Origin: Candidatus Binatus soli
Lineage (GTDB): Bacteria; Desulfobacterota; Binatia; Binatales; Binataceae
Length of the DNA: 64,000 nt
Direction of reading: 5' to 3'
Assembly: GCA_002479255.1 (NCBI GenBank)
Contig: DLMJ01000042.1
Location: 16,942-80,941, forward strand
Position 1 is the stretch's first letter. Each line of letters begins with the position of its first letter. This document shows positions 9,751 to 51,566 of the stretch, in pieces. The notes below the pieces were generated by a model, which searched no databases, was not told where the DNA came from, and saw nothing but the letters and a program-made list of their open reading frames with translations. A program made the position numbers and the translations under genes.

Positions 9751-10065
9751 ATGCGGACAGGAAAAGTTGTCGTATCGAAAATTCGCGAACGGGGACTGCG
9801 AATCATTCCGGCAGCGGCCTTGGCCGCGTCGCTGGGGATGCTCGCGCTCGGCGGATGCTCGTCGCAGAACGCGGATGTGCCGCCGGAACATCCGATGATG
9901 GCAAATTTCGCGCTCGAAAAGTGCCAGCAGCTCGATGCGAACCTTTATAAATGTCCGGCCGTGGATCAGCCACTCTGTACGCCGGAGTTCACTCGCACCG
10001 ATATTAATTGCGTGCACATCGGACCCAAAGGCAGCGTCTTCATTCAGCGCCAGGGCGCGCTCTGA
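9751..10065 (+). CDS. Small Cys-containing lipoprotein (lipobox LGGC), hypothetical
   Basis: Strong SD (gagaggag) 7 nt upstream of the ATG; signal peptide with lipobox. Confidence 0.6.
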   Translation: MRTGKVVVSKIRERGLRIIPAAALAASLGMLALGGCSSQNADVPPEHPMMANFALEKCQQLDANLYKCPAVDQPLCTPEFTRTDINCVHIGPKGSVFIQRQGAL

Positions 10066-10285
10066 GCATAGCTGAGGGCAGCATAGGCACAAGGGTTGCG
10101 GTGAGGGTGCTCGCCTGAATCTGAACGCCCAGGCGAGGACGCCCTACCATTGCCCGCTGCTGACCGGTCCCTCGCCCTTCGTTGCGGGCGAGGCTGGCTG
10201 AGCGTTTCGCGGCGGGCACTTGCCGCGCCTCGTTGCGCATCGCGCGCTCATCTGACAATTTTCTTAAACGCCTCGGTAGCTCACG

Positions 10286-10474
10286 ATGATGTGTCCCATC
10301 TGCAAAAAGCCCGCCGACCTGTCGCCCCGAAATCGCTTTCGCCCGTTCTGCTCCGAGCGATGCCAGATGATCGACCTCGGCACGTGGGCTTCGGGCGATT
10401 ACAAGGTGGAGGGCTCGCAGGCCGCCGACAACGAGCATCATGACGATCTGAAAAAGCGCAGGCTCCTCAATTGA
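10286..10474 (+). CDS. yacG: DNA gyrase inhibitor YacG (zinc-binding)
   Basis: CPICKK...RPFCSERCQMIDLGTWASG matches the YacG zinc-finger family. Confidence 0.75.
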   Translation: MMCPICKKPADLSPRNRFRPFCSERCQMIDLGTWASGDYKVEGSQAADNEHHDDLKKRRLLN

Positions 10475-11289
10475 CGCGTGACGCGCCGCCGCGGACTCAT
10501 CCGACTTCAGTGGTAGGCCCCGAGGTCGAGCTGGCCGCCGGCGTCGAGGTCGGTCCGTTGTGCCTCCTCGACGGAAAAATTCGTGTCGGTGCGCGCACCC
10601 GTTTAATCGGTCACGTCACGATTATGGGCATCACGGAACTCGGCGCCGACAACGTGCTTCATCCGGGCGCTGTTATCGGCGACGAGCCGCAGGATCTCAC
10701 GTACACGGGTGGCGCACGCTCGGTGAAAATCGGCGATCGAAACATCTTCCGCGAACATTCCACGCTCCATAGCGGCAGCGAGCGCGGCGACGTCACCATC
10801 ATGGGCGACGACAACTTCATGATGCAGAATGCGCACGTTGCGCACGATTGCCGAATCGGCAACTCGACCATCATCGCCGGCGGCGCGCTGCTCGCCGGCT
10901 GGGTCGAGCTCGGCGACCGCGCTCTCGTCTCCGGCAACTGCGTCGTGCATCAGTACACTCGCATCGGGCGGCTCGCGATGATGCGCGGTCTGTCGCGTAC
11001 CAGTCGCGACGTGCCGCCGTTCTGCATCATGGACGGCACCCATACCCTGCGCGGGATCAATGTCGTTGGACTCAAGCGCGCGGGAATTTCGTCGAAGTCG
11101 ATTCATGCGCTCCGGCGCGCCTTCACAACGCTCTTCGGCACGCGCCAGAATCTCAAACTTGCAATCGAGAGACTCGAGAAATCCGGCGATCTTGCGCCCG
11201 AAGTAATCGAGATGCTGGATTTCATCCGCGCCTCAAAACGAGGTGTCGCCTTCGGCCCCTTGGACCGGCACTCCGATTCCGACTCCTGA
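10471..11289 (+). CDS. lpxA: Acyl-ACP--UDP-N-acetylglucosamine O-acyltransferase
   Basis: Left-handed beta-helix hexapeptide repeats plus an LpxA-type C-terminal helical domain; TTG start overlapping the yacG stop (TTGA). Confidence 0.85.
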   Translation: MTRDAPPRTHPTSVVGPEVELAAGVEVGPLCLLDGKIRVGARTRLIGHVTIMGITELGADNVLHPGAVIGDEPQDLTYTGGARSVKIGDRNIFREHSTLHSGSERGDVTIMGDDNFMMQNAHVAHDCRIGNSTIIAGGALLAGWVELGDRALVSGNCVVHQYTRIGRLAMMRGLSRTSRDVPPFCIMDGTHTLRGINVVGLKRAGISSKSIHALRRAFTTLFGTRQNLKLAIERLEKSGDLAPEVIEMLDFIRASKRGVAFGPLDRHSDSDS

Positions 11290-11370
11290 ATACTGCGCTG
11301 CCGTCGCCACGGCCGATTGCTTGCGCATCCGCCCCCTGAAACAATCATAACGAAACGGGGAAGTGAAAAA

Positions 11371-11820
11371 ATGAACATACGTCCACGATTTTTCATCGGC
11401 GCGGGACTGATCATCCTGGCGATTGGCTACCTTATCGGCAATGCGATGCGCACCACCTCGGAATACTACCTGACCGTCACTGAAGTGGCCGCGCGCCAAA
11501 GCGAGCTTGGCGGGCAGGCGCTGCGTGTTGCAGGCCGCGTCAAGCCCGGCACGACCGACTGGGACCCGAACACGCTGACCCTGAAATTTGAAATCGTGCC
11601 GATCCCCGACGTCGATGCTGGCGGCGCGCTTATCAAACCTGTCGTAGCGACCGAGCCGGTCTCGTTCCGCGTCGTATCCGCCGGCGAGCCCAAGCCCGAC
11701 ATGTTCGCGCCCGGCCGCGACGTTATCGTCGAGGGCAAGCTCGGCGCGGGCGGCGTTATCACCGCGACGCAGGTGATGACCAGTTGCGCTTCCAAATACA
11801 AGCCCAAACAATCACAATAG
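11371..11820 (+). CDS. ccmE: Cytochrome c-type biogenesis heme chaperone CcmE, CxxxY variant (SCASKY in place of HDENY)
   Basis: N-terminal TM anchor, OB-fold region, PDMFAPGRDVIVEGKL motif; C-terminal CASKY aligns to the E. coli H130xxxY134 positions. Confidence 0.85.
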   Translation: MNIRPRFFIGAGLIILAIGYLIGNAMRTTSEYYLTVTEVAARQSELGGQALRVAGRVKPGTTDWDPNTLTLKFEIVPIPDVDAGGALIKPVVATEPVSFRVVSAGEPKPDMFAPGRDVIVEGKLGAGGVITATQVMTSCASKYKPKQSQ

Positions 11821-11835
11821 CGGCTGGTCCTACTG

Positions 11836-13860
11836 ATGCCGGAACTTGGTAACCTCGCGCTCGCGATCGCGCTGATTCTGGCCGTCTATTCCATCGTCGC
11901 GAATATCTACGGCGCGCGCCGCAATGCGCCCGACTTCGTCGTCAGCGCGCGTCACGCGATATGGTCGATGTGCGCGATGGTCACGATTGCGGTCGTCGTG
12001 CTGTGGGTGGCCCTGCTGCGCAGCGACTTCTCGCTCGAGTACGTCGCCACATATTCCAGCACCACACTCCCGACCGCTTACAAAATCACCGCGCTATGGG
12101 CCGGGCAGCAGGGCTCGCTGATGCTCTGGACCTGGTTGCTGGCGATCTTCACGTCGGTAGCCGCCTTTCAGAATCGCCGCCGCAATCCCGACACCGCGCC
12201 CTACGCGCTGGCCGTGCTGGCCGGCGTCGCGATTTTCTTTCTGTTGATGCTGAATTTCGTCACCCGTCCGTTCGATCTGCTCGCGACGATTCCCGCCGAA
12301 GGTTCCGACCTCAATCCACTGTTGCAGAACTATTGGATGGCGATACATCCGCCGTCTCTCTACATCGGCTACGTCAGCGCATCTGTTCCGTTCGCATTCG
12401 GCGCCGCCGCGCTCATCACCGGCAAACTCGACGACGGATGGATTCGCTCGACGCGCCGATGGGCGATTTTTTCCTGGTTCTTTCTGACTCTCGGCAATCT
12501 GTTCGGCGCCCGCTGGGCCTACGAAGTTCTCGGCTGGGGCGGTTACTGGGCCTGGGACCCGGTCGAGAACGCAGCCTTCATGCCGTGGCTCGTGATGACC
12601 GCGTACCTGCATTCGGTGATGATCCAGGAACGCAAGGACATGCTGAAGATCTGGAACCTGTCGCTGATTGGACTCGCATTCGAACTCACGCTGTTCGGCA
12701 CTTTCATCACGCGCAGCGGCGTCATCTCGTCGGTGCATTCGTTCACGCAATCCGGCCTCGGTCCATACTTCCTCAGCTTCCTGGCAGCGGTGACGCTCGC
12801 CTACACCGCACTTTTGATTTACCGCTCGAAGCAATTGCGCAGTCCCGCCGAATTTGAGTCGTATCTGTCGCGCGAGGCCGCGTTTTTGTTCAACAACCTC
12901 ATACTGGTCGGGATCACGTTCGCCGTTTTCTGGGGCACCGTCTTTCCCGTGCTGTCGGAGGCGGTGCGTGGCGTGAAGATTACCGTCGGACCGCCGTTCT
13001 TCAATCGCGTCATCGCACCGCTGGCGCTCGGGCTGGTGTTCCTGACGGGCATCGGGCCGCTGATCGCGTGGCGGCGCACGACCACTGACAATCTTGTGCG
13101 CAGTTTCGCCGCGCCCGTCGCGATTGGCGTCGTGACCGGGATCATCGCCGCCGCTGCCGGTTTGCGCCAATGGTACGTGCTGACCGCCCTCTCTTTGGCC
13201 GCGTTCGTGATGGGCACCGTACTCGTCGAGTTTCGCCGCGGGATGAACGCGCGCCGCCACATGCTGGCCGAGCCGCCCGCCAAAGCGCTCGTCAATCTCG
13301 TTGCCAAGAACAACCGCCGCTACGGCGGCTACGTCATCCACGTCGGCGTGGTCGTCGCGTTCATCGGAATCGTCGGCTCGTCGTTCTTCCGCACCGAAGT
13401 AAAAAAGAGCGTGCACGCGGGCGACAGCTTTACGATCGGTTCGTACACTCTGCGCTTCCTGGGTCTCTCGGAGGTCGACACGCCTCATCTCGCGAGCGCG
13501 ACCGCACGCGTCGAGGTGCTGAGCGCTGACGGCCGCGAAATCACCGTGATGTCGCCGGCGAAGCTTTTCTTCATACGGGCGCAGCAGCCCGCGACCGAAG
13601 TCGCAATCCGCTCCACTCCCTTAAGCGACCTCTATGTTGTGCTCGCCGGAATCGACGACAGCGGTCAGACCGCGACCTTCGAAGTGTTTTTGACGCCCCT
13701 GGTCTTCTGGCTGTGGGCCGGCGGCCTGCTGATGGTGCTCGGCACTGTGATTGTGATGTGGCCCAACGTGCGCGAGCGCGCCGCAATCGCGACCGTGCTG
13801 AGCCGCTCGTCCACCGCCGCGCGCGAACTCAACGACGTGGCCGCTCCCGGGGGTGATTGA
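11836..13860 (+). CDS. ccmF: Cytochrome c-type biogenesis protein CcmF (heme lyase component)
   Basis: 674-aa polytopic membrane protein with WWD-family motifs typical of CcmF. Confidence 0.95.
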   Translation: MPELGNLALAIALILAVYSIVANIYGARRNAPDFVVSARHAIWSMCAMVTIAVVVLWVALLRSDFSLEYVATYSSTTLPTAYKITALWAGQQGSLMLWTWLLAIFTSVAAFQNRRRNPDTAPYALAVLAGVAIFFLLMLNFVTRPFDLLATIPAEGSDLNPLLQNYWMAIHPPSLYIGYVSASVPFAFGAAALITGKLDDGWIRSTRRWAIFSWFFLTLGNLFGARWAYEVLGWGGYWAWDPVENAAFMPWLVMTAYLHSVMIQERKDMLKIWNLSLIGLAFELTLFGTFITRSGVISSVHSFTQSGLGPYFLSFLAAVTLAYTALLIYRSKQLRSPAEFESYLSREAAFLFNNLILVGITFAVFWGTVFPVLSEAVRGVKITVGPPFFNRVIAPLALGLVFLTGIGPLIAWRRTTTDNLVRSFAAPVAIGVVTGIIAAAAGLRQWYVLTALSLAAFVMGTVLVEFRRGMNARRHMLAEPPAKALVNLVAKNNRRYGGYVIHVGVVVAFIGIVGSSFFRTEVKKSVHAGDSFTIGSYTLRFLGLSEVDTPHLASATARVEVLSADGREITVMSPAKLFFIRAQQPATEVAIRSTPLSDLYVVLAGIDDSGQTATFEVFLTPLVFWLWAGGLLMVLGTVIVMWPNVRERAAIATVLSRSSTAARELNDVAAPGGD

Positions 13861-33685: not shown

Positions 33686-34849
33686 ATGCCGATTTATCTC
33701 GATCATAATGCAGGCGCTCCTGTTCGTGTCGAGGCTGCCGCCGCGGTCTCACGCCTGCCGGCCGACATGGGTGGGAATCCCTCGTCGGTGCATCGCTCAG
33801 GCCAGCGTTCGCGCCGGATGCTCGAGGTTGCGCGCGCGCAAGTCGCGTCGATCGTCGGCGCCGAGCCGCGGCAGATCGTGTTTACCAGCGGCGGCACCGA
33901 GTCGAACAATCTTGCCATCTTCGGAGGGATCACCGCGGCCTCCCGACGCCGTAAAATTATTTCATCCCAGATCGAGCATTCATCGATCCTCGCTCCGATT
34001 GCAGAACTCGAGCGCCGCGGTTTTGAGGTAGTGCGAGTCGCGCCCGACTCCGACGGACGAGTCGATCCCGGGCGCGTGCTCGCCGCGCTCGATAGCGAGA
34101 CCGCGCTCGTCACGCTCGGACTGGCGAACTCCGAAGTCGGAACGATTCAGGATCTCGCTCCGCTCGCATCCATGTGCGGCGGGGCCGGTGCGTTGTTTCA
34201 TATAGACGCGGCGCAGGCAGTCGGCCGAATTCCGGTCGATATCGCGGCGCTGGGATGCGATCTGCTGACACTGAGCGGCCACAAGCTTGGCGCGCATTCG
34301 GGAGTTGGCGCTTTGTACGTCCGCGACTTTACGCGCGTGGCGCCGATCGTTTTTGGCGGGCCGCATGAAAGCGGCATGCGGGCGGGCACGCCGAATCTGC
34401 TTGGCGCAGTCTCCTTCGGCGCGGCGGCCGAGGCCGCGATGAATGCGATGGCGGCAGAGTCGGTCCGAATCGGTTCACTTGCCGCGTCGCTGTTCGCGCG
34501 TATCCGCGAGGCGATTCCCGGTCTTCGCTTGAACGGCCCGATTGTTGGCCGGCTTCCGAATACGCTCAACCTCACGTTTCCGGGCGTGCTTGGCGAGAGC
34601 ATGCTGATTGCGCTCGATCTCGAGGGCGTCGAAGTGTCGATGGGCTCGGCGTGCGCGGCAGGAGCCGTCGAGCCGTCGCACGTGTTGCGCGCGATGGGCC
34701 GCAGCGTTGCCGACGCGCGCAGCTCGCTCAGGATCAGCCTCGGCTGGAACAACACCGCACAGGAGATCGAAGCCGTCGCGGCGCTCATCCCCCAGGTGTG
34801 GCGGCGTGTCGCCGCCAGCGAACCTCTGTCGGAGGCGAGCGCACGATGA
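33686..34849 (+). CDS. Cysteine desulfurase (class I NifS/IscS family)
   Basis: Active-site SGHK(L)GAHSG(V)G PLP-lysine motif; 4-nt overlap with the downstream mnmA. Confidence 0.9.
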   Translation: MPIYLDHNAGAPVRVEAAAAVSRLPADMGGNPSSVHRSGQRSRRMLEVARAQVASIVGAEPRQIVFTSGGTESNNLAIFGGITAASRRRKIISSQIEHSSILAPIAELERRGFEVVRVAPDSDGRVDPGRVLAALDSETALVTLGLANSEVGTIQDLAPLASMCGGAGALFHIDAAQAVGRIPVDIAALGCDLLTLSGHKLGAHSGVGALYVRDFTRVAPIVFGGPHESGMRAGTPNLLGAVSFGAAAEAAMNAMAAESVRIGSLAASLFARIREAIPGLRLNGPIVGRLPNTLNLTFPGVLGESMLIALDLEGVEVSMGSACAAGAVEPSHVLRAMGRSVADARSSLRISLGWNNTAQEIEAVAALIPQVWRRVAASEPLSEASAR

Positions 34850-40416: not shown

Positions 40417-41946
40417 GTGATCCTGATTCTCGATTTCGGCAGCCAGTACACGCAGCTGATCGCGCGCCGCGTGCGCGAAGCCAACGTGTATTGCGAAATC
40501 CATCCGTTCAACTTCGCGCCCGAAAAAATCCGCGCGATGAATCCGCGCGGGATAATTCTTTCCGGCGGACCGGCCAGTCTCTACGAGCAGAATGCGCCGG
40601 ATATCGCCGACGAGGTGCTCAATCTTGGCTGTCCGGTGCTTGGGATCTGCTACGGCCTGTACGTGATCGCGCAGCATATGGGGGCGCGCAGCGTGGGCTC
40701 GCGACAGCGCGAATACGGACCCGCAACGCTGGTGATCGACGGCGACGACGTGCTGTTCGAAGGGCTCAGCGGGCGGGAGCATCGCGTCTGGATGAGTCAC
40801 GGCGACCGGGTCGAGACGATTCCGGGCACGCTATGCGCGATCGCACACAGCGACAACTCGCCCTATGCGGCGTTCAAGACGCGCGCCGGGCGCATCCGCG
40901 GCATCCAGTTTCATCCCGAGGTCGTGCACACACCGTGCGGCACGCAGGTGCTCCGCAACTTCGTGCTGAAGATCTGCGGCGAGCGCGGCGATTGGACGAT
41001 GGCGAATTTTGTCGAGACGAAACTCGCGGAGATTCGCAAGCAGGTCGGGCCGAGCGACAAGGTCCTGATGGGACTGTCGGGCGGCGTCGATTCTTCCGTG
41101 GCGGCCGCGCTGATACATCGCGCGATCGGCTCGCGGCTGCATTGCGTGTTCGTCGATACCGGCCTGCTGCGCGCGGGCGAGCGCGAGCGGATGGAGAATA
41201 CGTTCGCGCGCCAGCTCGGGATCGGTCTCAAGGTTACAGATGCGTCCGATCTTTTTCTGTCGCGACTGGCGGGCGTGCTCGACCCCGAGCAAAAGCGGCG
41301 CATCATCGGACATACTTTCATCGACGTGTTTGAATCCGAGGAAGTCGTTCAGGGCGCGAAATTTCTCGGCCAGGGAACGCTCTACCCGGACGTGATCGAA
41401 TCGGTCTCGTTCAAGGGACCGTCGGCGATGATCAAGAGCCATCATAACGTCGGCGGATTGCCGGAGCGGATGCGCCTGGAACTGGTCGAACCGTTGCGCG
41501 AGTTGTTCAAGGATGAAGTGCGAGAAGTGGGCCGGCGGCTGGGGCTGGCGGCGGAGGTCGTCGAGCGGGAACCGTTTCCCGGCCCCGGGCTTGCAGTGCG
41601 AATCGTCGGCGAGGTCACGCGCGAGCGGCTCGATCTGTTACGGCGCGCGGACGCGATCGTGATGGAAGAAACGGCGACGGCGGGCTTCGGACTCAAATTA
41701 TGGCAGGCATTCGCCGTGCTGCTGCCGCTCAAGACCGTGGGCGTGATGGGCGACGGGCGCAGCTACGAAAGCGTGATTGCGATTCGCGCGGTCGAGTCGA
41801 TGGACGGCATGACGGCGGATTGGGCGCGCCTGGATCCCGCGTTTCTTGCGCGCGTGTCCAGCCGTATCACCAACGAGGTCAAGGGCGTCAACCGCGTCGT
41901 TTACGACATCACGTCAAAGCCGCCCGCGACGATCGAGTGGGAGTGA
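40417..41946 (+). CDS. guaA: GMP synthase (glutamine-hydrolysing)
   Basis: ILILDFGSQYTQLIARRVRE class-I GATase N-terminus plus PP-loop SGGVDSS; GTG start at 40417 chosen by alignment to the E. coli N-terminus. Confidence 0.9.
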   Translation: MILILDFGSQYTQLIARRVREANVYCEIHPFNFAPEKIRAMNPRGIILSGGPASLYEQNAPDIADEVLNLGCPVLGICYGLYVIAQHMGARSVGSRQREYGPATLVIDGDDVLFEGLSGREHRVWMSHGDRVETIPGTLCAIAHSDNSPYAAFKTRAGRIRGIQFHPEVVHTPCGTQVLRNFVLKICGERGDWTMANFVETKLAEIRKQVGPSDKVLMGLSGGVDSSVAAALIHRAIGSRLHCVFVDTGLLRAGERERMENTFARQLGIGLKVTDASDLFLSRLAGVLDPEQKRRIIGHTFIDVFESEEVVQGAKFLGQGTLYPDVIESVSFKGPSAMIKSHHNVGGLPERMRLELVEPLRELFKDEVREVGRRLGLAAEVVEREPFPGPGLAVRIVGEVTRERLDLLRRADAIVMEETATAGFGLKLWQAFAVLLPLKTVGVMGDGRSYESVIAIRAVESMDGMTADWARLDPAFLARVSSRITNEVKGVNRVVYDITSKPPATIEWE

Positions 41947-43471: not shown

Positions 43472-44074
43472 ATGAGTGTACTTGTGCCCTACGTAGTCGA
43501 GCAGACCGGCCGCGGCGAGCGTTCTTACGATATCTTTTCGAGATTGCTCAAGGACCGGATCGTGTTCCTGGGCGGGACCGTCACCGACGACGTTGCCAAC
43601 CTGGTCACCGCGCAGCTCCTGTTCCTCGAGTCCGAGGATCCGGAGCGCGAAATAAACATGTACATCAACTCGCCGGGCGGATCGGTCACCGCCGGCCTGG
43701 CTATCTACGACACGATGCAATTCGTGAAGCCTCCTGTCTCGACGCTATGCGTGGGGCAGGCCGCCAGCATGGGATCTCTGCTGCTGGCCGCAGGAGCCAA
43801 GGGCAAAAGATACGCGCTGCCGCACTCGCGGATACTGATTCATCAGGTCTCCGGCGGGTTCGAGGGACAGGCGAGCGATATCGAGATTCACGCGCGCGAG
43901 GCGTTGCGTCTTCGCGAAATCCTCAACAACATCCTTGCTCATCATACCGGCCAAAATGCCAAGAAGGTCGAGAAGGATACCGACCGCGACAACTTCATGT
44001 CCGCGGCGCAGGCAGTCGAATACGGACTTATCGACGAAGTGATTTCCGGCCGGCCGCTCAAGGCCTCGCTCTAG
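43472..44074 (+). CDS. clpP: ATP-dependent Clp protease proteolytic subunit
   Basis: End-to-end ClpP similarity including GQAASMGS around the active-site Ser. Confidence 0.95.
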
Positions 44075-44092: not shown

Positions 44093-46502
44093 TTGGCCAT
44101 GGACGCGCAACATAACCTCGAAGGCCGGGCTGACCAAAAGATCGAACGGTTCCGAATTCGCGGGATGCATTGCGCGAATTGCGCGAGCATCATCGAAAAC
44201 GCCGTCGCGCCGGTTCCCGGCGTCATCGACGCCCATGTAAATTTCGCCGCCGAAACGCTCACCGCGCGCGTCAGCGACAAACTTGCTGCCGGTGAAATCG
44301 AGGCGAGGGTCGCGGCCGCCGGCTATAGCGCGATCGCCGAGTCGAACAGCATTGGCGCGGGCGAATCCGCTCTCGATCGCCAGGATGCGCGCCGCAACCT
44401 GCAGTGGGTAGTCTGCACTGCGATTGGCACGGCAGTCGTCATGTATTTGCAGCATCGCGAGAGCAGCGCCGCGCGCATCGCGACGCTCGTCGCCGCCACG
44501 ACACTGATGTTCACCGCCGGCCTGACCTTCTACCGCGGCGCATGGAGCGCCGCACGCAATCGCACCGCAAACATGGATACGCTGGTCGCGCTTGGCATCA
44601 GCGCCGCCTACTTCTACTCAATACTTACCACGTTTCCCGCTATCTTCTTCGCGGGTCCGCGATTCTTCGATACTGCCGCCGAGCTGATCCTTTTTATTCG
44701 CTTTGGCAAATTCCTCGAGGCGCGCGCTCGCGGCCGCGCGATGGCTGCGTTGCGATCCTTGCTGACCCTCGTCCCCGACGTTGCCACTGTGGTGCGCGAC
44801 GGCAAGGAGCGCGTCGTGCCCGTTTCCGAGTTGGCCGTCGGCGACATCGTGCTGGTCAGGCCCGCTTCCAGAATTCCGGTTGACGGTGTGATCGTCACCG
44901 GCGCCAGCGCCATCGACGAGTCGATGCTTACGGGCGAGTCGATGCCGGCGGACAAGTCGGCGGGCGATGAGGTCTCCGGCGGCACGCTGAACACCGCCGC
45001 TGCGATTACGCGTCGGCGCGCGATTTGTGCCGGCGGTGATCGTGACCGCGGCGCTCACCTTTTCTGTGTGGATGTGGTTCGGCCCGAGTCTCGTGATGGC
45101 GTTGACTGCGATGACCGCCGTGTTGGTGATCGCATGCCCGTGCGCGATGGGATTGGCGACGCCGACTGCGCTTATGGTCGGTAGCGGGCTCGGCCTGCGC
45201 GCGGGGATTTTGTTCAAGCGGGCATCCGCCCTCGAACTGATCACGAGAATCCGGGTCATGCTGTTCGACAAAACCGGCACGCTGACGGTCGGCCGGCCGG
45301 AACTCGAGTCGGTCGTCGCGCTCGACGGCGACGAGAATAGTGCGCTGTCCTTTGCGGCGATCGCCGCCGCCGGATCGATTCATCCGCTGTCGCGAGCCGT
45401 CACCTCCAGCGCGCAAACGCGAAACCTCGCGCCGCAATTCACTCCCGACAACTCACGCGAGATACCGGGCCTGGGCGTTACAGCCGAGCATCACGGAAAA
45501 CAGATCGCGCTTGGCAACGACCGGCTGATGACGCAGGCCGGCGCCGCTGTCGATTCTCGCGCCCGCGACGAGGCGGCTCGCATAGCAGCATCTGCGGCGA
45601 CGCCGCTGTTTCTCGCGATCGATCGCAAGGTGACGGCGGTGCTTGCTTTCCGCGATCCGGTCAAGGCCGAGGCACGCGGCGCGATCGCGGCGCTGCATCG
45701 GATGGGCATCCGCACGGTGATGATTTCCGGCGACAACGCTGAAGTCGTAAAGACCGTCGCTGCTCGATTGGGAGTCGACGAGTTCCATGCGCAACTGATG
45801 CCGGCGGACAAGATTGCGCTCGTCAAGCGGTACCAGGACTCCGGCCTGTTCACCGCGATGGTCGGCGACGGAATCAACGACGCGCCCGCAATTGCCGCCG
45901 CGGACATCGGAATCGCGATCGGCTCCGGCACCGACGCCGCCAAGGAAACCGGCGACGTCGTGCTCACCCGCGACGACTTGTACGACATCGTCCGCGCACT
46001 CGTGCTCGGCCGCGTGACGCTGAACAAGGTGAAGCAAAATCTTTTCTGGGCGTTTTTCTACAACGCGCTCGGAATTCCGATCGCGGCCGGCGTTCTGTAT
46101 CCGCGGTTTGGAATCATGCTGAATCCCGCCCTTGCCGGACTTGCGATGGCGCTGTCGAGCGTCAGCGTCGTCAGCAACGCGCTACTGCTCAATTTAACCG
46201 GCCCGCGAAAATTGCGGGCAGTGCGCGCCGAAATCGAAGCAGTGCCGGGCGCTGCTCCACCGAGTTCCTCGACTCCGCCACAAGCGCGCAGCGAGGTCCC
46301 TGAAAAGAAGGAGATCGCAATGGCAACGAAATTAAAATGCGAAAAATGCGGCTTCGAGACCGCGATGCCGACGCATTGCAATCGCCCGATGCACTCTGAA
46401 CGCGTCGGCCACGAAACCAGGCTGGTGTGCTGGATGGGTCCCGACTGCGGTGTCGCCGATGTACCCAAGCATTGCGATGCGCCCATGCGCGACGCCGCCT
46501 AG
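44093..46502 (+). pseudogene. copA: Cu(I)-translocating P1B-type ATPase (CopA-like), disrupted by a frameshift and a missing ~30-codon segment near 44990-45030; carries a Cys/His-rich C-terminal extension
   Basis: HMA domain GMHCANCAS, TGES, CPC, DKTGT, YN and MxxSS Cu-signature motifs. The frame switches from +2 to +0 between GGTLNTAAAI and FVPAVIV, and the conserved ...AQ.SKAPIQ.LAD... block is absent. Confidence 0.55.
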
Positions 46503-46595
46503 CACATACACACGACCGCTTTCATCGGGCCCATCGGGCTGCGACTATGGGCAATTGGGTGGGCATCGAGCCAGCTTCCAGCCGGGAGGATACGA

Positions 46596-47378
46596 ATGCC
46601 GAGCCGGGTTCATCAATTCTACGCGGTAGCTTTCGAGGAAAACTTTTCGCTCCGCCAGATAGCGCCCGCTTTTCCCGAGGCCAGGATATCGCCGCTCGAA
46701 ATGTTCGTGCCGATCGAACCCGACGGCGGCCTCTACGTCTTTCCCTTCGGCGCCATCGTCTCGCACGACGTTCCGGTCGAACAGCGCGAACGCATATTCG
46801 CACGCCTCACCCGCGCCATGCCAAAACTCACCACCCGGATCATTCGCGAGGATTACTCCGTGCTGGAGGATCCTGCCGCGCCGATCGGAATTTCCGGCGG
46901 GATGCTGCGGGTCGACAAGCTCACTTCCCAACGCGCAGAAATCGTCGCGCTGACGGTCGCTCAGAGCGCGGCGATGGAATACTACGAGCGAATCGTGGAC
47001 AGCCTCTTTGCGCGGACCGCACAGTTGGTCGATCGGATGGCGTCGCACGGCACCGTGCCGTATCGGATTACGCCCTTGCATCGCTTCATCGGCGAAGCGA
47101 TTTCGTCGCGCACCGAAGTTCTCGCCGTGCTCCATCTGCTCGACAAGCCCGACGCTGCATGGGAAGACCCCGCGATGGACCTCATCTACGACGACCTGCG
47201 CGATGAATTCGATCTCGTCGATCGTTACGCTGCGCTGACCAGCAAGCTGCAAAGCATCCAGGACTCGCTGGTTCTGGTCCTGGACGTCGCCCGCGACCGC
47301 CGCCTGGTATTGCTCGAAGTCGTTGTCGCGCTGCTGATTTTGCTGGAAATAATCTTGGGCGTCATTCACTTCACGTAG
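46596..47378 (+). CDS. DUF155 (RMD1/YagE-family) protein with a C-terminal TM helix
   Basis: Profile-like match to the DUF155 core (YVFPFGAIV..., KLTSQRAEIVALTVAQSAAMEYYE); GGGAGG SD 6 nt upstream. Confidence 0.65.
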   Translation: MPSRVHQFYAVAFEENFSLRQIAPAFPEARISPLEMFVPIEPDGGLYVFPFGAIVSHDVPVEQRERIFARLTRAMPKLTTRIIREDYSVLEDPAAPIGISGGMLRVDKLTSQRAEIVALTVAQSAAMEYYERIVDSLFARTAQLVDRMASHGTVPYRITPLHRFIGEAISSRTEVLAVLHLLDKPDAAWEDPAMDLIYDDLRDEFDLVDRYAALTSKLQSIQDSLVLVLDVARDRRLVLLEVVVALLILLEIILGVIHFT

Positions 47379-47494: not shown

Positions 47495-47926
47495 ATGTCA
47501 TACGAAAAGGGAATCGACGCCGGACTCCTCCTACCCGGACAGTACGTCGATCTGGTCAGGCGAAATGAGATCATCGAGGGTGAACTGAAACTTTTGCTGG
47601 CCGTTCTGGAAGACGCGATTCGATGCTACCTGCGAAACGTGAACGCGAAGGACGGCGAGCGCCGCGGCGACTTCATCGAGGTCAGAAACTGGTTCGAAGC
47701 CGGGGGCGGTGCGGCCGTCGCCAGACGCGCGGATATTTTCAGCTTCGACAATCTTTGCGCTGCGCTTGGCATCGAGCCGCGTTGCCTGCTTGCGCGCCTG
47801 CAGATTCTCACAATCTCCGATCTGCCGTCGCGGCGTTTCCAGATGCGCCGCCATCGCCCGCTGTCGAGTCTGCAACATGCAAACGGCGCGCGTCAGCGCG
47901 GCCCGGCCCGCTCCCACGGCTCGTGA
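47495..47926 (+). CDS. Hypothetical protein (start taken at internal Met MSYEKG)
   Basis: ORF track 47408..47926; no recognisable family. Confidence 0.4.
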   Translation: MSYEKGIDAGLLLPGQYVDLVRRNEIIEGELKLLLAVLEDAIRCYLRNVNAKDGERRGDFIEVRNWFEAGGGAAVARRADIFSFDNLCAALGIEPRCLLARLQILTISDLPSRRFQMRRHRPLSSLQHANGARQRGPARSHGS

Positions 47927-48509: not shown

Positions 48510-48585
48510 TGGTGGGCAGGGAGTGAATCGAACACTCGACACAAGGATTTTCAGTCCTTTGCTCTACCGACTGAGCTACCTGCCC
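48510..48585 (-). tRNA. tRNA-Phe (anticodon GAA), CCA encoded
   Basis: Cloverleaf: acceptor GGGCAGG/CCTGCCC, D-arm TAGCTCAGTCGGTAGAGC, anticodon loop CTGAAAA, T-arm GGTTCGATTCC. Confidence 0.9.
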
Positions 48586-49662: not shown

Positions 49663-50392
49663 CGTGAAGTAACCCCGCCGCTATGCTGACCGCGGCCACC
49701 GCCGCTGTCTCGCTCCTGAGGCGATTTGGCCCAAGTCCGGCCGCGACGAATCCGGCGTTCGCGGCTTTCGCGCGCTCCTCATCGTCGAAATCGCCCTCCG
49801 GTCCAACCGCTATCAATATCGCACGCGGACGCAAGCGTCGAATCACGCCGGCGAGCGGCTCGCCGCCCTTCGCACAGATTACGGCGAGCGTCCGGGGCGC
49901 CACGGCGCGAACCATGCCGTCAACGCCGATCGGCGATCGCACTTCCATCGCGGCCGGGGACTGGCTCTGCTTTGCGGCGGCGATCGCGAGCCTGCCCCAT
50001 CGCGCCAGCCGATCCGCTCCCGGCAAACGGACCAATCCGCGCGCACAGACGATCGGCCATAGCTCCGATGCGCCCAACTCGGCCGCCTTCTCGACCACGA
50101 AATCCATTCGCGGGCCTTTGACGATTGCGGCGGCCAGAATGATTCGAGCTCGGGCGGGCGAAGGCGACTGCGATGACGATGATTCGACGCGAATTACGGC
50201 GCGGTCGCGTTCGTAGCGCTCGATTGTGCCCCGATGCTCGACGCCCGCAGGATCGAGCAACGACACGCGCGCATCGACGGCCAGCCGCAGGACCGTGCGC
50301 ATGTGATGCAACTCCGCGCCCTCGACGTGCGCGAGGCGGGCCGCGTCCGGCGCGCGCGCGATCGAAAAACGCGGCGGCAACGAAACGCCCAT
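49625..50392 (-). CDS. rsmE: 16S rRNA (uracil1498-N3)-methyltransferase RsmE
   Basis: SPOUT-class RsmE C-terminal motifs (IAVGPEGDFDDEE, LGPNRLRSETAAVAA). ATG at 50392 overlaps the prmA stop; the track's 464-aa extension is rejected. Confidence 0.85.
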   Translation of the reverse strand: MGVSLPPRFSIARAPDAARLAHVEGAELHHMRTVLRLAVDARVSLLDPAGVEHRGTIERYERDRAVIRVESSSSQSPSPARARIILAAAIVKGPRMDFVVEKAAELGASELWPIVCARGLVRLPGADRLARWGRLAIAAAKQSQSPAAMEVRSPIGVDGMVRAVAPRTLAVICAKGGEPLAGVIRRLRPRAILIAVGPEGDFDDEERAKAANAGFVAAGLGPNRLRSETAAVAAVSIAAGLLHDAQGSSEDAETE

Positions 50393-51333
50393 CAGCGTGG
50401 CGCCCGCGCCATCACGGCCGTCGTCCATCCGCGATGCGTCTTGCGGCTGAGACATCGCAGCGGCGACCGATAGTGACCCAACACTTCGTCGGCCTCGTCG
50501 GCGAGAAAACCGCCAAGGATCAATCGTCCCCCGGGCGCGACGAGTCGCTTCAGATGCGGCGCGAGTTCGATCAATGTGTGGCTCAGAATATTCGCCGTGA
50601 TCAGATCGAAGTGGCGATGAATCGAAGCGAGCGGCACCGATGAGAATCGGATCGATTTTTCCACGCGGTTCAGGCGCGCATTGGCACGCGCGTTTTCCAA
50701 CGCCGTCGGATCGATATCGATTGCGATTATTTCGCGCTCGAAACCGTGGCGCTTGCCGAGCAGTGCCGCCGCGATCGCCAATACTCCCGAGCCCGTGCCG
50801 GCATCGAGCATCGACTTCGGCGCGCGCGCGCCTATCAGCGATTCGATCGCGCGCAGAGCGCCTGCCGTCGTGGGATGATGCCCGGTGCCGAAAGCCCGCG
50901 CGGGTTGGACGATAATGGTCATTCGGCCGCGCTCGTTCTCGCGCTTCCACGGCGGTACGATCAGCATTCGCCGCCCGACGCGAAACGGCCCAAACCGTTT
51001 CATCCAAAGCGTGGACCATCCCGGATCGACGATTCTCCTCACGCTGCCATCGCGAGCGCCGTGGCCGGTGCTGTCGCGCGCGGCGTCAGCCAGCATTCCG
51101 GCCTGCTCCATCATGAGTTTGAGCCGCAACAGCTCGGTCGTGGAGATCCGGTCGAAGTACGCTTCGAGCGCGACGGTTTTATCCTCGCGCGCCCGCGGCA
51201 ACTTCATCCCGGCGACGGCGCATCCGATGGCGCCGCCCGCCACGAGGATTCCCGCGGCTTCATCCGCGAGGTGCGCGTGGGTGCGGAAGATCGCCCTGGT
51301 GTAACTTTGCCTGGATGCGGCTGCGCGTTGCAT
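50392..51333 (-). CDS. prmA: Ribosomal protein L11 methyltransferase PrmA
   Basis: FGTGHHPTT and LDAGTGSGVLAIAA SAM-binding motifs. Confidence 0.85.
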   Translation of the reverse strand: MQRAAASRQSYTRAIFRTHAHLADEAAGILVAGGAIGCAVAGMKLPRAREDKTVALEAYFDRISTTELLRLKLMMEQAGMLADAARDSTGHGARDGSVRRIVDPGWSTLWMKRFGPFRVGRRMLIVPPWKRENERGRMTIIVQPARAFGTGHHPTTAGALRAIESLIGARAPKSMLDAGTGSGVLAIAAALLGKRHGFEREIIAIDIDPTALENARANARLNRVEKSIRFSSVPLASIHRHFDLITANILSHTLIELAPHLKRLVAPGGRLILGGFLADEADEVLGHYRSPLRCLSRKTHRGWTTAVMARAPR

Positions 51334-51566
51334 ATTCCCCGGCCTTTGACTTTGGCCCGGGAATACCACGGTTACAATGGGGATTGCTCATGGGACGGTT
51401 TTTGGATGCCGACCGTTCTGCCTCTCTGCGAGGCGGCACGATGAGGTCCGATTCGCGCGAAGATTGTTGACAAGATGAAGCGGACGCGTTTGCGCCTGCG
51501 CTCGACGAACGCGTAAACTCGCATCATTATCAGACTTCAATTGTTCCAACGTGGTGGAGGCGGGCT

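Follow-up and report, generated by a model that had tools for sequence, protein, structure and literature searches.

A single 104-nt out-of-frame deletion has probably made a young pseudogene of the copA-type copper ATPase gene in a Candidatus Binatus soli population

Two long open reading frames in different frames lie side by side on the chromosome of Candidatus Binatus soli, an uncultured bacterium of soil and peat, and the question they raise is whether they are the halves of one copper ATPase gene, how the frame came to change between them and whether anything functional is left. The window, that is, the whole stretch of DNA that was analysed, comprises 64,000 nt with a G+C content of 62.8% and contains no N; the source lineage of its copA products is Binatota, Binatia, Binatales. 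Both frames are on the plus strand. ORF 1 extends from 44093 or 44099 to 45184 (frame mod3=2) and ORF 2 from 45027 to 46502 (frame mod3=0), and the two overlap, with the frame switch at the place given in a preliminary description of this DNA.

The two ORFs are flanked by clpP (43472–44074) and a DUF155 gene (46596–47378). The gene order era-der-guaA-gltX-clpP-copA-DUF155 was kept in all the relatives fetched, copA being a single syntenic copy in the order clpP-copA-DUF155, and the remainder of the window is housekeeping chromosome (uvrB, glgB, ccmF, ftsH, dnaG). We also noticed a 143-aa ORF without a Pfam family (47495–47926, plus strand), which follows the DUF155 gene in all relatives, and a tRNA-Phe (GAA) gene at 48510–48585 on the minus strand. 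One contig sharing the locus (L008, JGI 3300017940) has one T fewer at the equivalent of window position 41321, with guaA called as 325 + 172 aa, and in another (L010) the methyltransferase gene downstream is split; these single-base differences could be sequencing errors or real variants.

The gene of interest, a copA-type P1B copper ATPase gene, spans 44099–46502 on the plus strand. When the joined protein was compared with the database, it matched 835-aa proteins at 87–90% identity over 100% of the query, several of them named as heavy-metal or Cu+-exporting P-type ATPases of Candidatus Binatus. When a collection of genomes was scanned with generic P-type ATPase patterns, the matches listed were distant relatives at 37–51% identity, with no Binatus locus among them. 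In ORF 1, Pfam searches identified an HMA domain (PF00403, residues 20–78, E = 2.3e-11), whose CxxC motif reads GMHCANC, and positions 2–81 of the 181-position model of PF00122 (E1-E2_ATPase); positions 124–176 of PF00122 were found in ORF 2, together with a HAD hydrolase domain (PF00702). Profile positions 82–123 are therefore missing, and the division of the matches between the two ORFs indicates one P-type ATPase gene cut inside its actuator domain.

Pumps of the P1B-1 type are recognized by the motifs TGES, CPC, DKTGT, YN and MxxSS. All the catalytic and ion-site motifs are legible in the window: LTGES in the first fragment, and IACPCAMG, FDKTGTLT, FFYNALG and AMALSSVS in the second. The protein of an intact sister allele (P0122, see below) scored 574.1 bits with TIGR01511 (cut-off 397) and 590.7 bits with TIGR01525 (cut-off 346), and since both scores exceed the curated cut-offs, the window gene before the deletion was a P1B-1 Cu(I) ATPase. 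By descent, judged from its sequence, the gene belongs to the CopA family and is of the P1B-1 Cu(I)-exporting type. What it no longer has is the one unbroken frame required of a CopA, leading from the actuator through the CPC helix to the phosphorylation and nucleotide-binding domains.

The 5' remnant, which is in the native frame (44099–45010, plus strand; codons 1–304), takes in the HMA domain with GMHCANC, membrane helices one to four and the greater part of the actuator including TGES, and is collinear with the 835-aa intact Binatus CopA. The preliminary description had begun this frame at TTG 44093. The native start is instead ATG 44099 (MDAQHNLEG, as in all homologues); the 363-aa product of the TTG is not on record, whereas the product of the ATG is. 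The 3' remnant, in the shifted frame at 45021–46502 on the same strand, carries the CPC helix, DKTGT, the domains for nucleotide binding and phosphorylation, the final pair of membrane helices (YN, MALSS) and a C-terminal tail.

This tail is a 60-aa Cys/His-rich extension (46320–46499, plus strand; MATKLKCEKCG...HCDAPMRDAA), which begins with MATKLKCEKCGFETAMPTHCNRPMHSERVGHETRLVCWMGPDCGVADVPKHCDAPM... after the last membrane helix. According to the alignment it is fused in frame to CopA, and it is conserved in all Binatus CopA homologues. No Pfam or NCBIfam match to it was obtained, nor was a counterpart seen in solved CopA structures. It may be an undescribed C-terminal metal-binding module.

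By three-frame translation, the native frame, ...DEVSGGTLNTAAAIT, runs to base 45010, and ...RFVPAVIVTAALTF continues from 45021 in the next frame; the native reading of ORF 1 ends ...GGTLNTAAAIT. DNA alignment with four intact orthologues (L002–L005, 93.5–94.8% identity) placed one contiguous 104-column gap right after 45010, and an identical 104-nt gap was obtained against the intact sister allele. The deletion junction is thus at 45010–45011 (plus strand), two bases between which 104 nt of all intact relatives are absent, and orthologues in the matching syntenic position show the gene without this disruption. As 104 = 3×34+2, the lesion is of class 3n+2. About 35 codons, between codons 304 and 340, were lost; the missing residues align to residues about 289–323 of the Archaeoglobus fulgidus CopA, and the deleted segment takes in the end of the actuator domain and the link to the next membrane helix.

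The preliminary description had proposed one internal out-of-frame deletion creating a pseudogene, and this is borne out by the one gap that appears whichever intact relative is aligned, a 99.7%-identical sister strain among them. The conserved segment AQ.(S/D)KAPIQ.(L/V)AD, which it had reported as missing, is indeed absent on alignment to the intact relatives. The alignment to intact CopA of relatives, suggested there for sizing the lesion, upheld a single deletion but not the size or class, which had been given as 91–94 nt and 3n+1, nor the estimate of about 30 missing residues. Some details of the junction also have to be corrected. Removing one base gives IT-VGA-RFVP and not the predicted ITRVGA, and the ATRVG motif of the intact relatives, believed to be retained at the junction, sits inside the deleted block. 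All the intact proteins have AVAA before RFVPAV; the RVGA read in the second frame aligns with this AVAA and is its altered remnant.

The intact sister locus (L093, from JGI 3300070354) has copA at its positions 10001–12508, encoding the 835-aa protein P0122. Over 22.4 kb it was 99.7% identical to the window, with 63 substitutions (0.28%), and the 104-nt gap was the sole indel. In copA itself, 13 substitutions besides the gap were counted (99.5% nucleotide identity outside the gap). Every amino-acid change specific to the lineage recurs in the sister gene, as does the Cys/His tail at the C-terminus, and the pattern of window-specific VIVT residues matches this gene as well.

With three outgroups used for polarity, the window copA was found to have acquired, outside the junction, only one non-synonymous and four synonymous private changes since its split from L093, and no extra stop or frameshift. 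The few private changes, the absence of any further disabling mutation and the lone indel together indicate that the pseudogene is young. On the longer branch to the window, 20 non-synonymous and 19 synonymous private codons were counted, against 36 and 101 in three intact Binatus genes (p = 0.006). We considered whether this excess could reflect relaxed selection in an old pseudogene and rejected the idea: the intact L093 gene and its protein P0122 have those same changes, so the non-synonymous excess predates the deletion. Relaxed constraint after the disabling event was not seen among the five changes since the L093 split, which fits a very young pseudogene. As a separate observation, amino-acid changes made up an unusual share in copA already before the deletion, on the branch leading to the window and L093, perhaps through relaxed or adaptive evolution.

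Seven contigs with the deletion, from JGI and ENA assemblies, differed from the window at only 0–15 positions over 7.7–13 kb, and they are therefore samples of one near-clonal population. In cluster listings, the truncated product was on 73 contigs and the intact sister allele on 2. We conclude, with a probability of about 0.9, that copA was broken by one 104-bp out-of-frame deletion and is a young pseudogene of a near-clonal population, for which an intact sister allele exists.

The differences between the window and L093 are clustered: 26 are in 34331–34818 (488 nt), 10 in 44547–45008 and 16 in 50149–51461 (1.3 kb), with almost none elsewhere. Clusters of SNPs in otherwise near-identical sequence are the usual signature of recombination tracts, and the first and last of these clusters look like such tracts between close Binatus soli strains. 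The middle one, a SNP-dense tract of 10 substitutions in 462 nt (44547–45008, plus strand), ends 2 nt left of the junction, and it is then 916 nt to the next difference on the right. Positions with such a boundary between SNP-dense and SNP-free sequence make up 0.03% of the 22.4 kb under a strict definition and 1.6% under a loose one, as counted post hoc in one sequence pair. The ten junction-proximal bases, CGTCGGCGCG (45011–45020, plus strand), include C at 45011 and G at 45016, both private to the deletion allele, whereas G and C occupy these two positions in L093 and in all the other intact relatives. Two explanations fit the junction equally: a 104-nt loss with two substitutions, or a 103-nt loss from ACG to ACG accompanied by one substitution and the loss of one further nucleotide.

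The deletion would most likely have originated in a complex illegitimate join, made at a short, GC-rich microhomology (ACG/CG) and linked to the border of the recombination tract, and with modest confidence we favour a single recombination-linked event over coincidence. That the deletion and the SNP tract arose in one recombination event seems to us, on balance, probable. In one version, imported DNA would have been anchored by homology on its left side and have undergone an illegitimate join on its right; in the reverse version, it is the L093 strain that would have repaired the deletion, by taking in an intact segment. The abrupt end of the tract beside the junction points to such an event, as does the imperfect junction, of a kind often seen in illegitimate joins; the two other clustered tracts in 22 kb and a 2.16-kb mosaic in a further contig (L094) suggest that recombination tracts are common at this locus. 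The case is weakened in three respects: the derived tract states fall partly in the window lineage and partly in that of L093 and so give no direction, no donor sequence was found, and the statistics are post hoc and from one pairwise comparison.

Plain replication slippage between short repeats, with the base changes and the SNP tract being coincidental, appears rather unlikely. It would make use of the ACG (or ACGCG-like) microhomology present at both ends, and the 103-nt deletion with a 1-nt loss and one substitution does recreate the window sequence; however, three separate events would be required within 10 nt, and the junction would have fallen by chance at a boundary of the kind occupied, in the post hoc count, by so few positions.

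Two other origins were considered and rejected. Read in reverse complement, the junction decamer CGCGTCGGCG matches CGCCGACGCG, which stands at the right end of the deleted block; an inverted or template-switch origin was nevertheless dismissed, since it needs an extra 7-nt loss and since a chance match is plausible in GC-rich sequence with CG repeats. A hairpin-mediated deletion or a polymerase-jump artefact was also considered: the intact segment folds with its ends roughly apposed, yet its stability does not stand out from that of shuffled sequence (z = −0.5).

More speculatively, one recombination event may have knocked out the only syntenic copper exporter, and the knockout allele may have become dominant in the metagenomes carrying it, which would suggest that losing copper efflux brought a benefit or at least no cost, while sister strains would have escaped or been repaired by import. 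We regard this extended scenario as doubtful, somewhat more so than slippage.

The contig L094 (JGI 3300041955) deserves a separate description. Over the 2156 nt equivalent to window positions 45135–47290 it is 100% identical to the window, and it is 5–8% divergent on both sides. The identical stretch comprises the 3' 1.37 kb of copA and most of the DUF155 gene, through window position 47290. Its copA is intact (837 aa, P0157), and the switch to identity starts about 120 nt downstream of the deletion site. Two readings of L094 are open, a real recombinant between strains or a chimera assembled from strains that occur together.

From the native start, the gene now gives a 361-aa product in which the HMA domain and four membrane helices are joined by part of the actuator domain and then by 58 nonsense residues; the CPC ion site, the phosphorylation site at DKTGT and the domain that binds ATP are all missing from it. 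The out-of-frame tail of this product (RRRAICAGGDRDRG...) is encoded at 45011–45184 on the plus strand, with the stop TAG at 45182–45184. The downstream 1.48 kb is still open but lacks the TGES actuator, and it would remain open just because the event is recent. Its start varies with the gene caller, the product being called as 442, 451, 468, 478, 486 or 491 aa, and no promoter-like site was found in the interval as an internal promoter for this second fragment. P-type ATPases transport ions by the Post-Albers mechanism. Judged by that mechanism, neither fragment would be able to run a transport cycle, which makes the gene a young pseudogene. We infer that copA has lost its function, the actuator linker being gone and TGES parted from the CPC and DKTGT parts.

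It is highly improbable that copA is still functional, either as a pump in two pieces or through recoding, that is, programmed frameshifting or reinitiation, for which the overlap of ATG 45174 with the stop at 45182–45184 might be considered. Both remnants are open, gene callers and RefSeq handle the halves as proteins, the deletion allele is by far the most frequent in the assemblies, and a programmed −1 frameshift exists in the copA of E. coli. However, open frames are to be expected in 63% GC DNA this soon after the event. Recoding offers no remedy, because the 35 missing actuator and linker codons are simply absent, and a 442-aa piece from 45174 would begin past the CPC helix. Moreover, with six different starts called, the second piece has no consistent one, and there is the lack of a promoter-like site already mentioned.

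The junction was also found in other assemblies. The Logan k-mer assembly of SRR7027742 contains a 13.9-kb contig that starts at window position 44919 and shows 0 mismatches over 7584 nt, junction included. With its start 92 nt upstream from the junction, this contig (SRR7027742_2690) breaks off within the SNP-dense tract, and the break probably reflects co-occurring variants of that tract in the sample. Base for base, the same junction is present in the seven contigs fetched (from five JGI and two ENA assemblies), and over eight contigs (L001 and L006–L012) it is identical down to the two private base changes. The exact left flank of the window is present in JGI contigs L006–L012. The 361-aa product from ATG 44099, with its out-of-frame residues, occurs in 155 index blocks of the public collection, and the RefSeq entry WP_428129391.1 (361 aa, Candidatus Binatus soli) is exactly this truncated product.

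The preliminary description had kept an assembly or sequencing error as its alternative. Such an artefact, with copA intact in the organism and 104 nt dropped by an assembler or in library preparation, is the least credible reading that we weighed: the region is GC-rich and able to fold, and the Logan contig does break close to the junction, but a de Bruijn assembler would need junction k-mers in the reads, the same junction with its private changes recurs across different samples and assemblers (73 contigs overall for the product), close relatives of near-identical local sequence assemble intact, the predicted hairpin does not exceed shuffled sequence in stability, and no other indel exists in the 22.4 kb compared with L093. 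The frame switch at 45010/45011 is thus genuine, and an assembly or sequencing error is effectively excluded.

In RefSeq, WP_428129391.1 ("cation transporter") and WP_428129535.1 (478 aa, "heavy metal translocating P-type ATPase") are the halves of one broken gene and are not marked as a pseudogene. Because they are listed as separate proteins, metabolic reconstructions would credit the lineage with a copper exporter, and the sequence data suggest that it most probably does not have the exporter that the annotation implies. What results is a pseudogene of the deletion type, ordinary and recent, in a well-known family; by contig counts it is the dominant allele of one Binatus soli population, and the one unusual thing about it is that its junction coincides with a recombination-tract boundary. 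The locus provides a clean case in which a frameshift in a metagenome-assembled genome was shown to be real through the exact truncated product and the junction in independent assemblies, and the position of the junction at a tract edge gives a small concrete lead on how deletions originate in uncultured soil bacteria.

The closest comparison is with the sister Binatus soli CopA (P0122, L093), which is the same syntenic gene. Unlike the window gene, it retains the 104 nt and codes for a single protein of 835 aa, and it differs at the 10 clustered sites just left of the junction. In homology-facilitated illegitimate recombination, a homologous anchor on one side is combined with an illegitimate join at microhomology on the other. 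The window resembles this in having an imported-looking SNP tract on one side and, on the other, an imperfect short-microhomology join with loss of DNA; the end of the tract 2 nt from the junction, the 3-nt ACG microhomology and the two extra changes can be set beside that mechanism. Unlike the described cases, the window pattern could also have come about if the sister strain repaired the deletion. The term itself appears, for naturally transformable bacteria, in passages of two articles (PMC6382021, PMC4437187).

Full-length alignments were obtained with the CopA proteins of Archaeoglobus fulgidus (3J09/3J08; E = 2e-175) and Legionella pneumophila (3RFU; 1.5e-147). The Binatus gene shares HMA, TGES, CPC, DKTGT, YN and MxxSS with these P1B-1 Cu(I) ATPases. 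The window gene, unlike the A. fulgidus CopA, is without the equivalent of residues about 289–323 and contains a frameshift, and at its end the Binatus CopA has the unrelated 60-aa Cys/His-rich tail and not an HMA-type C-terminal domain.

In E. coli, a programmed −1 frameshift near codon 70 of copA yields a short chaperone form, CopA(Z); the full gene is intact there and the shift is regulated. The window gene resembles it in the change of frame and in a short N-terminal product that holds the metal-binding domain. In contrast to E. coli, the change of frame in the window stems from missing DNA at codon 304, and a full-length protein can no longer be made.
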